Assembly (NCBI GenBank): GCA_019347715.1
Contig: JAHWKU010000002.1
Span: forward strand, 118,349-182,348
Direction: 5' to 3'
From: Actinomycetota bacterium
GTDB lineage: Bacteria > Actinomycetota > CADDZG01 > JAHWKV01
DNA: 64,000 bases
This document shows positions 8,017 through 13,737 of this stretch, piece by piece. How positions within the stretch are numbered: position 1 is the first letter of the stretch; every line of letters starts with the position of its first letter. The position numbers and the translations under genes are program-made. The notes under the pieces are model-generated. The model had not been told where the DNA came from. It saw only the letters and a program-made list of their open reading frames with translations, and ran no database searches.

Positions 8017-8663
8017 CGGGCGATCCTCAGTTTTTTCTCTAGACGTGACACCGCGAACGACAGCGGTAGCGTGATGGTGAGGAAGGCGAAGATCGCCCCG
8101 TTGTAAACCTCGAAGGTGGCAAACGTCCTGGAGTCCAGAATCTGGGTCTGATAGAGGAGTTCGGGAAAGGCGATCGATGCCGCGATAGCCGAGTTTTTGA
8201 CCATAGCGATCATGAGGTTGCCGAGGGGAGGGATAACCGTCCGTAGGGCCTGAGGCAGGACGACAAGACGCATGGTCTTTGGAAACGTCATGCCGATGGA
8301 ACGGGCGGCCTCGATCTGGCGGGGTCCGATCGAAGCGATCCCAGAACGCACCGTCTCAGTGACGTAGGCCCCCGTGTACAGAGTGAGCACGATGGCCGCC
8401 GCAGTGAAGGGCCTTAGGCGGATCCCAAGTGAGCCCAAACCGAGGTAGGCGAAGCTCATCTGTAATAAAAGGGGAGTGTTACGAAAGACTTCGACCTCCA
8501 CCCTGGCAAGGCGGGGGAGCATCGGGACCGGCGCGATCCTGAGCACCGCAACGAAGGTGCCGAGCACCAAGCTTCCGCCGAAGGCGACCGCTACCAGATA
8601 GAGGGTGTTGCGATAACCCTCTAAAAGAAAGGGGAGGTTCTCAGTGAGAACCTCCCCAATCAT
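8013..8663 (-). CDS. Polar amino-acid ABC transporter permease (GluC/HisQ-like)
   Basis: EAARSIGMTFPKTMRLVVLPQALRTVIPPLGN EAA motif and 5 TM helices. 4-nt overlap with the downstream permease. Confidence 0.8.
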   Translation of the reverse strand: MIGEVLTENLPFLLEGYRNTLYLVAVAFGGSLVLGTFVAVLRIAPVPMLPRLARVEVEVFRNTPLLLQMSFAYLGLGSLGIRLRPFTAAAIVLTLYTGAYVTETVRSGIASIGPRQIEAARSIGMTFPKTMRLVVLPQALRTVIPPLGNLMIAMVKNSAIAASIAFPELLYQTQILDSRTFATFEVYNGAIFAFLTITLPLSFAVSRLEKKLRIAR

Positions 8664-8680
8664 CGATCAGCGAGACGGTT

Positions 8681-9574
8681 TTAGGCTGGCGGTGCGGGGG
8701 CCTCTGCCTCTACGTCGTCGGGCGGCGGAGTTGCGCTTTCGCCGGTCACCGGCTGGACCCACTTGTTGTAGAGGACCACCCAGGTGCCGTCGGACTTGGC
8801 CTCGCTAATGACCCCATCCACGAACTCCTTGAATCCCTCGCGCCCCTTCTTGATTCCCATCCCGTAGGGCTCCTTGGAGAACGGCTCGCCCGCAATCTGG
8901 AATTGGTCTGGGTCGTTCTTCAGGAGTCCGACCAAGATGACATCGTCAGTGGTGACGGCGTCCGCCTGGCGGTTCTGCAGCAGTTGGAAACACTGCGAAT
9001 ACCCGTCTTGCAGCACTACGTTGGCGTCGGGGGCGGCGATCCGGATGTTCTTCTCAGACGTGGAGCCCTTGGCGGAGCAAACGGTCCCCTTTTGCGAGTT
9101 GAGATCGGAAACCGATTTGATGTTTCCATCCTTTCTCACGAGCAGGCGCTGCTGGGCAACGTAGTAGACGATCGAGAAATCGATCTGCTGCTTGCGTTCC
9201 TCGTTGATTGTCATCGTCGAGATGATGAGGTCGACCTTGTCCTCCGTTAGAAATGGGATCCGGTTGGCGCTGATCGCCTCGACGAACTCAACATCAACTC
9301 CAAGTGCCTCACCGACGAGGTTGCCGAGGTCGACGTCGAAGCCTTCCGGCTGATTGGTGGCGGGGTTCAGGAATCCGAATTGCGGTACGTCGTACTTGAC
9401 GCCGATCACTATCTTGCCGCGCTCTTGGAGCTCGGCCATGTAGCTGCCCGGCTCGAATGATGGGGCGGCCTCCGGCTCTTCCGTTTCGACCGACGGATCG
9501 TCCGTCTGGCAAGCACCCATGATCATCGCAAGCACCGCCAGCACGGCGAGAATCTTGATTAGCCTTCGGCCCAT
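8681..9574 (-). CDS. Amino-acid ABC transporter substrate-binding lipoprotein (GluB-like, SBP family 3)
   Basis: Lipoprotein signal MGRRLIKILAVLAVLAMIMGAC followed by a typical SBP_bac_3 fold sequence. Confidence 0.8.
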   Translation of the reverse strand: MGRRLIKILAVLAVLAMIMGACQTDDPSVETEEPEAAPSFEPGSYMAELQERGKIVIGVKYDVPQFGFLNPATNQPEGFDVDLGNLVGEALGVDVEFVEAISANRIPFLTEDKVDLIISTMTINEERKQQIDFSIVYYVAQQRLLVRKDGNIKSVSDLNSQKGTVCSAKGSTSEKNIRIAAPDANVVLQDGYSQCFQLLQNRQADAVTTDDVILVGLLKNDPDQFQIAGEPFSKEPYGMGIKKGREGFKEFVDGVISEAKSDGTWVVLYNKWVQPVTGESATPPPDDVEAEAPAPPA

Positions 9575-10416: not shown

Positions 10417-11457
10417 ATGAAAACCCACAGTAAAGACTTCAAGCTCCTCATAGATAAATACAAAGACGATGGATGCGTCGAGCTTTCGGTCGTCCACTCC
10501 CTCGTTGAGCAAAATGACCTCGACGAGAACCAGGCCGCCGAGGTCTATGAGCGGCTCGACGCCGAGGGCATCGACGTCGAAGACGATTGCAGCACGGAAT
10601 CCGAGGAGACACGGATCAACTATGAAGACCTGGGGTCGTTTTCTGCAGACACCCTCGGGCTCTTCCTGCAGGAGATCGGCCGATTCCCCCTGCTCACTCG
10701 CGAAGAGGAAGTTGAACTGGCGGAGCGCATCGACAGAGGTGACCTCGAAGCCAAAAACTTGATGATCAACTCCAATCTTCGGCTCGTCGTTTCTATAGCA
10801 AAGAAGTATCAGGGACAGTTGTCGCTTCTCGATCTCATCCAGGAGGGAGTGCTCGGACTCATTAGAGCCGTAGAGAAGTTCGACCGCACCAAAGGATTCA
10901 AGTTTTCAACTTACGCAACATGGTGGATCCGCCAAGCCATCGGACGCGCGGTCCAAACGCAGGCGCGCACGATTCGTCTTCCGGTTCATCAGGTTGAAAG
11001 GGAGTGGAAGGTCGCACGCGTTGGGTCCGAACTCACCGAGAAGCTCGGGAGAAAGCCCACAGACGAAGAGATTGCAGCTGCCGCCGACCTAACGATCGAG
11101 CAGCTGAAGGACCTGTGGAATTCGCCAAGGATTGTGGCGAGTCTCGATCAGCCGGTTGGAGGCGAGGGAGACACTCCTCTTGGGGAACTGAGGGTGATCG
11201 CCGAACCTATTGACGGAGAGATCGAGCTAAATCTCAAAGAGGAGAGTCTAAGAACCGCATTGGCGCGGCTTACGCAACGGCAGCAAGACGTCATCAATCT
11301 GCGGTTCGGCCTCGACGGAGAGGGGCCGCTCACCTTAAAAGAAATCGGAGAGAGGCTCGGGGTCTCAAGAGAACGTGCTCGCCAAATCCAGTCCGAGGCC
11401 CTGGCGGCTTTGGCGCAGGCGCGAGAGCTTGCGGCGCTGGTACCGGTCGCCAGCTAG
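10417..11457 (+). CDS. RNA polymerase sigma-70 family factor, principal/group-1-like (regions 1.1, 1.2, 2, 3, 4 present)
   Basis: Start refined to ATG 10417, preceded by AGGAGG. The ORF-track start at 10312 would overlap the convergent ATPase gene. Conserved [33 protein letters not shown] (region 2) and [24 protein letters not shown] (region 4.2). The N-terminus resembles RpoD region 1.1. Confidence 0.8.
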
Positions 11458-12111
11458 TTAGCGGGGACCAGCTCTCCGTGCTCGTCGAATCGATCGAGCT
11501 CCTGGGGCCCGTGCTTTCTCAGCTCGTCGATGGCTTTCTCCACGGCAGCAGCGTCGCCGGAATGTACCCCGACCAGAACCCTGCCTTCGGATAGCTCGTC
11601 GCGGTAGCGCATCTTCCAGAAGCCTCCGATCACGGCGCCCCCAGTTGCTCCGGCCGCGGCCGCGCCGGCCGTCGCTCCCCAGATCCCGGCCCCTACGGCG
11701 GGGCCGATGCCGGGAATGCCGAATGCGATTGCCCCCGCGATAAAGCCAAGGGTGGCGCCGGCAGTCCCGCCGATAGCAGACCCCTTTGCAACTCCGCCTC
11801 CTACCTCCGAGACGGTCTCGGCATCCTCCTGGCGCATCCGATCTGGAGGAACGTCATGACCGGCATGCGAGGCAGCCTCCTCTTCGTCGTGGCGCTCTGC
11901 GGGCGTGAAGGTCTCTTCGGTTCCTCGGGCAAGAAACGAGATGGACTTCTCTTCGATCCCGGCACTCTTCAACGAGTCGATTGCATGACGTGCGGTCTCC
12001 GGGTCGGCAAACGAGGCGATGACGTTGTGTTTCTCGAAGCTCTGTTCGGTTTGGTCTGTGGTTTCTTCCTCGCCGGAGGTTTTGACTTCCTTTTCGTCCA
12101 TGAATCGGTGG
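11454..12111 (-). CDS. General stress protein-like (YflT/DUF1269-type) with glycine-zipper membrane segment
   Basis: Start refined to MDEKEVK at ATG 12109-12111 (complement). N-terminal [20 protein letters not shown] and C-terminal [24 protein letters not shown] repeats resemble stress-protein domains. Long Gly/Ala-rich hydrophobic zipper in between. Confidence 0.45.
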
Positions 12112-12156
12112 TACCCCGGTGGCAGGCAAGGCAAACAAAAGGGGTAAATAGCCCTT

Positions 12157-12939
12157 GTGAGAATCCTTCTAGGCACCTCAGGCTGGCAATACCGTGACTG
12201 GAAGAGCACGTTTTATCCCAAGGAAGTTACGCAGAGTGAGTGGCTGGAACACTACGCGCAGAACTTTCGCACCGTCGAGGTCAACAACACCTTCTACCGC
12301 TTGCCCGAGCGCAAAACTTTTGAGGACTGGCGCGCAAGAACGCCTGACGATTTCATCTTCACGATCAAGGCCAGCCGTTACCTGACTCACATCAAGAGGC
12401 TTCAAGAACCGCAGGAGCCGGTCTCGAGATTGATGGATCGCGCCGCCGGCCTTGGGTCAAAGCTCGGGACGGTGCTGCTTCAGCTTCCTCCCACTTTGCA
12501 GAAGGATGGAGCCGCACTCGCAGAGACGCTCGATGCGTTCGGCAGTTCCGTTCAGATCGTGATGGAGTTCAGACACGCCTCTTGGTTCGATGAAGAGATC
12601 CGGCACTTGTTAGAAGACAAGGGTGCTTCATTCTGCATGGCCGACCGCGGTTCCCGTGCGATCACGCCAATCTGGCGGACCGATTCCGTCCTGTACCTGC
12701 GTTTCCATGAGGGCCGTGCAAACCCGCGGCCATGTTACGGGAGGGATTCGCTTGCCGGCTGGGTCGATCGGATCAGCGGGCTCGCCAGGAAAGAAGACGA
12801 TGTCTATGTCTACTTCAACAACGACACCCGCGCCTGCGCGATCAGAGACGCGGGTGTCTTTGCAAAGCTGGCATCGGAGCGCGGCATGGAGGTGACCAGA
12901 GCTCCCGATTCGATCCAGGTTCATGGGGTAACGAATTGA
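12157..12939 (+). CDS. DUF72 (YecE/UPF0759) domain protein
   Basis: GTG start. N-terminal ILLGTSGWQYRDW...FYP...VEVNNTFYRLP is the hallmark of DUF72. Confidence 0.8.
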   Translation: MRILLGTSGWQYRDWKSTFYPKEVTQSEWLEHYAQNFRTVEVNNTFYRLPERKTFEDWRARTPDDFIFTIKASRYLTHIKRLQEPQEPVSRLMDRAAGLGSKLGTVLLQLPPTLQKDGAALAETLDAFGSSVQIVMEFRHASWFDEEIRHLLEDKGASFCMADRGSRAITPIWRTDSVLYLRFHEGRANPRPCYGRDSLAGWVDRISGLARKEDDVYVYFNNDTRACAIRDAGVFAKLASERGMEVTRAPDSIQVHGVTN

Positions 12940-12941
12940 CC

Positions 12942-13562
12942 ATGAGAAAGAATCCCGCTCCCGAGTTGTTGGAAAGGGGAGCCTCCCTCGATGAGGTGGC
13001 GGAGTCAGCCAGAGGATGTACCGCTTGCGATCTCTACAAGAACGCAACTCAAACTGTCTTTGGTGAAGGGTCGGCGCGCGCTGAGGTGATGCTTGTGGGG
13101 GAGCAGCCTGGTGATCAGGAGGACGTGTCCGGCGAGCCTTTCGTCGGGCCAGCCGGCAAGCTGCTCGATCGAGCCCTGGAGGAAGCGGGCATCGACAGAC
13201 GTAAGACCTACGTCACAAACGTCGTGAAGCACTTCAAGTGGATGCCCAAAGGGAAACGCCGCATCCACAAGAAACCCAATCGTGAAGAGATCACCGCGTG
13301 CAGGCCTTGGCTCGAGGCTGAGATCGCTCTGGTGAAGCCGAGAGTGGTGGTTTGCCTAGGAGCAACGGCCGCCCAGGCGCTGTTGGGAGCGTCCTTTCGG
13401 GTGACTAAGGACCGAGGCAAGTTCGTCGAGTGGGATCTCGAGCCAATGGTCACGGCTACGGTGCATCCCTCCTCGATCCTGAGAGCGGACGACCAGCGGA
13501 GGGCCTCCGAATTCGCCGCGCTGGTCGCGGATCTGAAGGGGGTTGCGGGGGCCCTGAAGTAG
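12942..13562 (+). CDS. Uracil-DNA glycosylase family 4, UdgX-like (KRRIH R-loop present)
   Basis: Start refined to ATG 12942, 3 nt after the DUF72 stop. Motif A-like GEGS, VGEQPGDQED, GEPFVGPAGKLL and motif B HPSSILR match family-4 UDG. The insertion WMPKGKRRIHKKPN matches the KRRIH loop that defines covalent-crosslinking UdgX. Confidence 0.75.
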   Translation: MRKNPAPELLERGASLDEVAESARGCTACDLYKNATQTVFGEGSARAEVMLVGEQPGDQEDVSGEPFVGPAGKLLDRALEEAGIDRRKTYVTNVVKHFKWMPKGKRRIHKKPNREEITACRPWLEAEIALVKPRVVVCLGATAAQALLGASFRVTKDRGKFVEWDLEPMVTATVHPSSILRADDQRRASEFAALVADLKGVAGALK

Positions 13563-13737
13563 CTGGGCTGGAAGGAACTGCTGGCCCGTGCCCTGGGACA
13601 AATGGGGTAATCCAGACATCAAGCTTTGTGCTTGCTTAACAAAACTACTGCTTCGCTGATACGCTCCCACATACAAAAGGCAACTGGCGGCTGGGGCCCC
13701 CATGCCATGAGGCGGGGTCGGGAGCCAGGGAGTCCAA

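Follow-up and report, generated by a model that had tools for sequence, protein, structure and literature searches.

We analysed a 64,000-nt stretch of an Actinomycetota genome (contig JAHWKU010000002.1; hereafter the window, in which positions are numbered) that carries, side by side, a gene for a DUF72 (YecE-like) protein and a gene for a UdgX-family uracil-DNA glycosylase (UDG), i.e., a uracil-DNA crosslinking protein. The two genes very likely form one operon, and their pairing is real but facultative. Comparison with relatives showed that the operon is ancestral to, and has been kept throughout, one UdgX subclade of soil Actinomycetota-type metagenome-assembled genomes, and that UdgX and DUF72 also came together independently, on occasion, in other phyla. 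Neither the DUF72-UdgX cassette nor its conservation at clade level nor the repeated independent juxtapositions seem to have been reported before. Loci fetched for comparison are given as L numbers and fetched proteins as P numbers.

Identity of the uracil-DNA glycosylase

UdgX is a family-4-derived, Fe-S-containing glycosylase that traps the abasic sugar through a histidine of its R-loop. The UDG gene of the window (12942..13562, + strand) encodes 206 aa, which make up the UDG domain only (Pfam PF03167, E=7e-40). When this protein was compared with all PDB chains using phmmer, Mycobacterium smegmatis UdgX (6IOD, 6AJO, 6AIL, 8IIE, and others) came out on top with E=2.5e-66, ordinary family-4 UDGs reaching only E=1e-36 and worse. 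The NCBIfam model TIGR03914 (‘UdgX family uracil-DNA binding protein’) gave 283.3 bits against a cut-off of 189.95, and the family-4 model TIGR00758 gave 164.8 bits, which exceeds its cut-off of 125.3 but is far below the score of the UdgX-specific model. The identical NCBI entry (P0001, from a 285-kb contig) is already named ‘MAG: UdgX family uracil-DNA binding protein [Actinobacteria bacterium]’; the enzyme identification is thus correct but not new.

The residues that define the UdgX class are motif A (GEQPG), E52, Q53, D56, D59, N91, K94, R107, H109, motif B, H178, and R184 (PMC10359453, PMC10776899), among which D56, D59, K94, and N91 are listed as UdgX-specific (PMC10776899); in the literature, UdgX is also counted among the 4Fe-4S proteins (PMC10359453). 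We aligned the window's UdgX with twelve relatives, M. smegmatis UdgX included. The R-loop KRRIH (residues 105-109; 13254..13268, + strand), which lies within KGKRRIHKK at residues 103-111, falls column for column on 105-KRRIH-109 of 6ajo/6iod, so that H109 aligns with the crosslinking nucleophile H109 and R107 with R107. The initial annotation, which had equated the His of this motif with UdgX His109, was therefore exact, the residue number being 109 in both proteins. Its reading of the family-4 motifs stood in part. HPSSILR is motif B (residues 175-181; 13464..13484, + strand), with H175 and R181 in the places of H178 and R184; it departs from the definition HPS(S/A)(L/V)(L/V)R by an Ile in place of Leu/Val at one position and is the commonest form of the motif, found in 53/90 UdgX relatives fetched. 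GEGS (residues 41-44), in contrast, which had been cited as a family-4 motif, is not motif A and is part of a conserved VFGEG stretch twelve residues upstream of the true one, GEQPG (residues 53-57; 13098..13112, + strand), which was placed by the alignments and by the definition in PMC10359453. Here, E54 corresponds to E52, the catalytic dyad partner of the His, and Q55 to the UdgX-specific Q53, and further along D58, D61, N93, and K96 correspond to D56, D59, N91, and K94. All of these residues (E54, Q55, D58, D61, N93, K96, R107, H109, H175, and R181) are invariant in the alignment, as are C26-x-x-C29 (13017..13028, + strand), the N-terminal pair of presumed 4Fe-4S ligands, and C120 and H97.

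A conventional turnover glycosylase of family 4 (UdgA type) that merely resembles UdgX could account for the family-4 score above its cut-off, and single substitutions at H109 do turn UdgX into a turnover enzyme (PMC10359453). Such enzymes have GE(A/G)PG and no R-loop His; the window's protein has GEQPG and KRRIH, keeps the equivalent of every class-defining residue, and scores far higher with the UdgX model, and we consider this alternative highly improbable. Judged by its sequence, the window's UDG is almost certainly a crosslinking UdgX. The same signatures, GEQPG and xRR[IL]H, were present in every UDG found adjoining a DUF72 gene.

Junction of the two genes

The DUF72 gene (12157..12939, + strand; 260 aa, GTG start; full-length match to Pfam PF01904, E=3.1e-68) ends with TGA at 12937-12939, and the ATG of udgX (12942-12944) follows after a 2-nt spacer, cc. 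The ATG thus starts 3 nt after the last base of the stop codon, as had been noted initially. This junction, TGAccATG (12937..12944, + strand), leaves no room for a terminator or a promoter, and translational coupling is probable. The corresponding junctions of relatives read ATGA (L084, L166), TTGA (L165), TAGATG (L081), and TGAccGTG (L083), and an obvious Shine-Dalgarno sequence is absent at most of the junctions. Taken as a set, they have the classical look of genes that are co-transcribed and translationally coupled. The co-expression proposed in the initial annotation is backed by the 2-nt junction of the window and by the overlaps and 0-nt gap of its relatives, and both proteins would very probably be made from one mRNA, probably by coupled translation.

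Distribution of the DUF72-UdgX pair

We then surveyed the pair in both directions, using 80 UdgX loci from GTDB species genomes (UdgX relatives of 54-73% identity, ±5 kb; Actinomycetota, Acidobacteriota, Verrucomicrobiota, Chloroflexota, Myxococcota, and others) and 80 metagenomic DUF72 loci (37-58% identity). A fixed pairing, considered initially, was borne out in the window's UdgX subclade, where the order DUF72->UdgX was found in 6/6 sampled members with a gap of 0-2 nt or an overlap of 4 nt, and in three different flanking contexts. Three of these members share the surroundings of the window: P0002 (92% identity to the window's UdgX; L084) and P0007 (78%; L081/L082) have the same flanks, and P0003 (94%; L083) has the same downstream flank, its upstream side being cut by the contig end. 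The shared flanks of L081-L084 are syntenic with the window, and adjacency there was rejected as evidence of selection. The remaining two have other flanks, namely Bac_luciferase / DUF72 / UdgX / PHP for P0013 (70%; L165) and permease / methyltransferase / RidA / DUF72 / UdgX / luciferase for P0011 (71%; L166/L167). As the cassette persists in different flanks at these loci, we accept its adjacency as evidence of selection. When all fetched UdgX proteins were placed in a neighbour-joining tree, the DUF72->UdgX operons (the window, L084, L083, L081, L165, and L166) all fell into one clade.

Outside this clade, a fixed pairing was rejected. The DUF72->UdgX arrangement was absent from P0012 (76%; L168), P0047 (70%; L169), P0030 (71%; L170), P0077 (71%; L171), L001 (73%), and L004 (70%), and no UdgX gene was found beside three of the closest DUF72 relatives, looked up singly. 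A DUF72 gene lay within 5 kb at 5/80 UdgX loci, from several phyla and never arranged as in the window: UdgX->DUF72 with a 3-nt gap (L080), convergent (L052), divergent (L054 and L073), and 3 kb apart on the same strand (L031). Reciprocally, UdgX was near DUF72 at 2/80 DUF72 loci, as UdgX->DUF72 with a 34-nt gap (L096) and with UdgX 380 bp upstream of DUF72 (L161). These other juxtapositions are scattered over the UdgX tree, and the partner was missing from 75/80 UdgX and 78/80 DUF72 loci. Searching for gene fusions with a concatenated DUF72+UdgX query, we found no clean fusion and two more adjacencies in the form of merged gene calls, P0242 (DUF72 followed by a truncated UDG of mycobacterial-type UdgX sequence) and P0243 (UDG followed by DUF72, cut by the contig end), which are probably frameshifted or read-through calls and are counted as adjacencies only. 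Another candidate, P0241, was rejected as a DUF72 fusion and is a tandem UDG-UDG call (397 aa, NCBI, 1427-bp contig) of two UdgX domains, of which the first breaks off after the R-loop region; a genuine duplication and an assembly artefact are the two options.

To what extent could such adjacency arise without any shared function? In this main rival explanation, DUF72 would be a small-molecule (e.g., sugar-phosphate) enzyme that entered an operon with UdgX once, in the ancestor of one lineage, the two genes being passed on or transferred together from then on; the remaining juxtapositions would be noise or a loose clustering of stress-induced genes. That most UdgX and most DUF72 loci have no partner fits this explanation. 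On the other side, at least eight arrangements were found across Actinomycetota, Chloroflexota, Acidobacteriota, and others, and the operon survives the change of both flanks. The frequencies are also much higher than chance would give: assuming a single DUF72 gene in each 3-8 Mb genome and independent loci (Poisson), 695 kb of UdgX flanks held 5 DUF72 genes against 0.09-0.23 expected (P<5e-6), and 273 kb of DUF72 flanks held 2 UdgX genes against <=0.09 expected (P<4e-3). As an internal control, we clustered all six-frame open reading frames (ORFs) of the 80 UdgX loci. The recurrent neighbours comprised large paralogous families (histidine kinases, ParA-like ATPases, ECF sigma factors, ABC ATPases, and SDRs) and, at low copy, DUF892, restricted to Terriglobia-type Acidobacteriota, and a 151-aa ORF of Verrucomicrobiota and one Nitrospirota locus (L026). 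The recurrence of DUF892 is plain synteny and that of the 151-aa ORF probably likewise; DUF72 was the only low-copy neighbour that recurred across phyla and in different arrangements. For comparison, the radical SAM gene TIGR03916 with a TIGR03915-fused UdgX occurred at 3/80 UdgX loci (L003, L006, and L014) versus 5/80 for DUF72 adjacency.

Fold and conserved residues of DUF72

The window's DUF72 matches TM1631 (1VPQ) with E=4.9e-25 and no Pfam family other than DUF72 even at E<=10. Its fold is a xylose-isomerase-like TIM barrel, to which apurinic/apyrimidinic (AP, abasic site) endonucleases match no better than sugar epimerases do, and the closest non-DUF72 structures are sugar epimerases/isomerases, a likeness that suits a small-molecule enzyme. 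A fold relationship specific to endonuclease IV (EndoIV) or to UV-damage endonuclease was considered and found unsupported beyond the superfamily level. The family's invariant polar residues (E41, K71, Q109, E137/R139/H140, D163, R182/H184, and N221/N222/D223) are placed by a structure model at the C-terminal ends of strands β2-β8. As this is the usual active site of TIM barrels, the model indicates that DUF72 is very probably an enzyme. The isoelectric point (pI) has a basic median of 9.5 among close DUF72 homologues, and TM1631 has been predicted, by computation only, to be an EndoIV-like DNA-repair endonuclease (PMC3828134, PMC4939058); both points favour a link of DUF72 to DNA repair. The window's DUF72 is an ordinary, intact member of the family with nothing distinctive except its operon partner. 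Tandem DUF72 paralogues (257 and 293 aa, 4-nt gap) were observed at L173:4001-5659 (+ strand), followed by genes for a HAD hydrolase and for AP_endonuc_2 (PF01261); more than one DUF72 is thus present in some genomes.

Gene context and possible role of the pair

The neighbours of DUF72 genes point in two directions, with three DNA-repair families on one side and two abundant families of small-molecule enzymes on the other. On the repair side, a PRK07945 HhH+PHP protein (a relative of the PolX PHP domain) was found at 6/80 DUF72 loci, directly adjacent at 4 of them, UvrC at 4/80, and UdgX itself at the 2/80 given above. A PHP gene directly follows UdgX at L165 (2640-3512, + strand), giving DUF72-UdgX-PHP in a row, and lies 1.2 kb from UdgX at L040 (6405-7301, - strand); others are at L161 (~8040-8711, + strand), L091, L094, L123, and L164, some copies having an N-terminal HHH_8. 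According to the literature, damage-inducible polB2 operons of archaea and bacteria show an enrichment of DUF72 and SRAP genes in their vicinity (PMC11791011). Such company speaks against adjacency without shared function. On the metabolic side, a Cof-type HAD phosphatase (9/80 DUF72 loci) is the commonest neighbour of all, followed by SDR (8/80). In one DUF72 clade of sediment/subsurface metagenomes, a Cof-type HAD-IIB phosphatase gene stands directly after DUF72 on the same strand (L117, L118, L125, L127, L129, L131, L132, L137, and L153), and SDR takes that place in another clade (8 loci). Such surroundings would be consistent with DUF72 acting on small molecules.

UdgX flips out the uracil and cleaves the glycosidic bond, whereupon His109 attacks C1' and a covalent protein-AP-DNA adduct results (PMC10359453, PMC4787834). 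In the window's protein, His109, activated by Glu54, would likewise bond to C1' of the abasic sugar. E. coli needs RecA, RecB, RuvC, DinB, and UmuDC, and not UvrB, to tolerate the UdgX complex (PMC4787834). Resolution of the adduct through RecA-dependent pathways or proteases is a proposal only, and the physiological role of UdgX has been called ‘largely unknown’ (PMC10359453).

We propose, with moderate-to-low confidence, that DUF72 may be a metal-dependent phosphodiesterase/nuclease that takes part in the processing of DNA damage, at abasic sites or at their protein adducts. DUF72 is far more widespread than UdgX, which excludes a factor specific to UdgX; it would serve a general role, with UdgX as one of several clients or partners. 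One option is strand incision by DUF72 beside the UdgX-AP-DNA crosslink, after which end-cleaning enzymes (e.g., a PolX-type PHP phosphoesterase) and resynthesis would finish the repair; the PHP phosphoesterase, which adjoins the pair at two loci, would be a third component in some cases. Gene context makes processing of AP sites or UdgX adducts by DUF72, a role so far unreported, plausible, with indirect support from its other DNA-repair neighbours (PHP and UvrC here, polB2/SRAP in PMC11791011). Judged by the same context, the juxtaposition of UdgX and DUF72 may well reflect a shared pathway, at odds that we put slightly short of even. The more specific step, that DUF72 incises or releases the UdgX adduct itself, seems doubtful. 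Equally speculative is the wider proposal of a TIM-barrel nuclease/phosphodiesterase that would start the removal of UdgX-AP (perhaps also SRAP-AP) crosslinks together with a PolX-type PHP protein in bacteria and archaea.

Several observations weigh against a repair role of this kind. The window's DUF72 has no match to AP_endonuc_2 (PF01261) or UvdE even at E<=10, its own pI of 7.75 is not basic, the published DUF72 crystal structures contain no bound metal (PMC3828134), and any activity of DUF72, of whatever kind, is read from sequence and context. HAD phosphatase and SDR as neighbours point as readily to small-molecule metabolism. Of the sampled UdgX loci outside the clade ~94%, and of the DUF72 loci ~97%, have no partner, which makes the link facultative, and the enrichment was calculated for loci taken as independent. 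In the DUF72 tree, moreover, UdgX-linked proteins are interleaved with unlinked ones, and a specialised UdgX-linked DUF72 subfamily was rejected on this ground. The lack of a distinct subfamily, the HAD and SDR neighbours, and the stress-protein genes around the loci (YflT-like, CsbD, and DUF892) are all what adjacency without shared function would lead one to expect, and we regard that explanation as a substantial possibility, though not a probable one.

DUF72 could also be a partner of UdgX other than an adduct nuclease, either a modulator of its toxicity, targeting, or complex stability or an enzyme acting in parallel on uncaptured AP sites. The tight translational coupling suggests roughly equimolar synthesis, over-expressed UdgX hampers the growth of E. 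coli repair mutants when Ugi raises genomic uracil (PMC4787834), and UdgX has been proposed to protect AP sites (PMC10359453). DUF72, however, keeps the full enzyme-like set of invariant residues at the top of the barrel and is present in most genomes without UdgX, and we find such a partnership improbable. Another conceivable function is that of an anti-phage or anti-mobile-element module, in which UdgX would crosslink the uracil-containing DNA of an invader (some phages have deoxyuridine genomes) and DUF72 would degrade it. What favours it is conceptual only, namely the exquisite specificity of UdgX for uracil in DNA (PMC10359453). A known anti-phage defence system was rejected, as no PADLOC model matches DUF72 or UdgX. 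The neighbourhood is of a housekeeping kind (sigma-70, ABC transporters, and solute-binding proteins), and relatives retain this block in synteny. The G+C content of the operon is 0.591 against 0.589 for the window, and with no deviation the reading of the locus as a horizontal-transfer island was also dropped. A defence module is thus very unlikely.

Other features of the locus and of related loci

Upstream of the operon lies a divergent intergenic region of 55 bp (12102..12156), presumed from its position in the ORF map to hold the DUF72-UdgX promoter; a promoter scan found no match to the sigma-70 consensus in it, and the promoter/terminator scan of the operon was uninformative. The divergent gene (11457-12101, - strand) encodes a Gly-rich, weakly YflT-like protein (25.4 bits, slightly short of Pfam's cut-off, 26.2); further upstream stand a sigma-70 gene and an amino-acid ABC transporter. 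On the downstream side, UdgX is followed by genes for a small membrane protein and for a solute-binding protein of the Peripla_BP_6 type. The window holds no second copy of DUF72 or UdgX and no radical SAM, TIGR03915, or PHP gene.

Genes of a general-stress type recur near the related loci as well. A CsbD-like gene is divergent from DUF72 at L031 (7366-7863, - strand), and DUF892 (YciE/F-like) genes lie 0.3-2.2 kb from UdgX at the Terriglobia-type loci L007, L032, L044, L048, and L065. Together with the YflT-like gene of the window, they may reflect co-regulation of UdgX in stationary phase or under stress.

Further neighbours of UdgX were diverse. A ribonucleotide-reductase small-subunit-like gene (PF00268) directly follows UdgX at L081:5683-6747 and L082:1534-2598 (+ strand) and is absent from the corresponding place in the window (13563-13737). 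A gene for a QueG-like epoxyqueuosine reductase (PF08331 + Fer4_16; L170:2950-4651, + strand) runs 8 nt into the start of UdgX and is another tight operon partner, in a different lineage. Two single cases are a gene for a bacterial type IB topoisomerase (PF01028, E=9e-30), an enzyme that likewise forms covalent protein-DNA intermediates, ~430 bp downstream of UdgX->DUF72 at L080:6791-7600 (+ strand), and a cytidine/dCMP-deaminase-family gene (PF00383, MafB19-deam) 1.8 kb downstream of UdgX at L171:6417-6890 (+ strand), a potential generator of uracil near a uracil trapper. At Verrucomicrobiota loci and one Nitrospirota locus (L006, L008, L014, L026, L036, and L057), a conserved ORF (133-182 aa) that matches no Pfam family lies convergent to UdgX and ~10-320 bp downstream of it; it may be a gene or an antisense ORF.

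Significance and comparison with known systems

UdgX is widely used as a tool to map uracil, edit bases, and conjugate DNA with proteins, and DUF72 is a widespread family (YecE in E. coli) whose crystal structures were deposited in 2004. The clade-conserved operon, the recurrent juxtapositions, and the repair-gene neighbours amount to a concrete hypothesis that joins the function of DUF72 to the fate of the UdgX adduct. If DUF72 does process such adducts, the operon would be a self-contained ‘capture and release’ module for the repair of uracil and AP sites, and the DUF72 family, with structures available for more than 20 years, would at last be given a function. Should the link prove spurious, what is left is another UdgX gene with a correct annotation. 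UdgX itself will not surprise a specialist, and the value lies in the experimental handle that the link to DUF72 provides.

From DUF72 / YecE / TM1631 (PDB 1VPQ, 1VPY, and 1ZTV), the window's DUF72 differs only by its operon partner. It was not assigned to either of two groups of DNA-repair nucleases with a xylose-isomerase-like TIM barrel, namely endonuclease IV / AP_endonuc_2 (PF01261), which is marked by its sequence and a trinuclear metal site, and UV-damage endonuclease (UvdE), to which neither sequence nor closest fold relates it.

The window's UdgX is 58% identical over the whole domain to M. smegmatis UdgX (MSMEG_0265; PDB 6AIL, 6AJO, 6IOD, and 8IIE), is of similar length (206 versus ~209 aa), and has in common with it GEQPG, KRRIH with His109, HPSS(I/L)LR, the equivalents of D56/D59/N91/K94/R107, and the conserved Cys residues, presumed ligands. 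It differs by a loop before KRRIH that is two residues shorter (WMPKG versus FTRAAGG), by being three residues short before motif B, and by its place in an operon with DUF72. An operon or neighbouring genes of UdgX are not mentioned in PMC4787834, PMC10359453, or PMC10776899, and no mention of UdgX together with DUF72 was found in the literature searched.

The other curated case of a UdgX-family gene with a dedicated neighbour is the radical-SAM-linked form, in which the same UdgX-type glycosylase domain (TIGR03914) is fused to TIGR03915 and stands next to TIGR03916 (‘rSAM_link_UDG’). The window's protein, by contrast, has no TIGR03915 N-terminal domain, tblastn with the radical SAM protein and the N-terminal domain of L014 gave no hit in the window, and no TIGR03916 gene is present there. 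The DUF72-UdgX cassette is thus a gene context of UdgX that takes its place alongside the stand-alone and the radical-SAM-linked forms. A functional parallel is offered by SRAP/YedK/HMCES, which binds and shields abasic sites as UdgX does. Its fold and chemistry are unrelated to those of UdgX: through a Cys-thiazolidine it becomes linked to AP sites that already exist in single-stranded DNA. An SRAP gene was not identified in this analysis. The SRAP gene, like that of UdgX, is enriched near DUF72-containing neighbourhoods of DNA-damage genes (PMC11791011).

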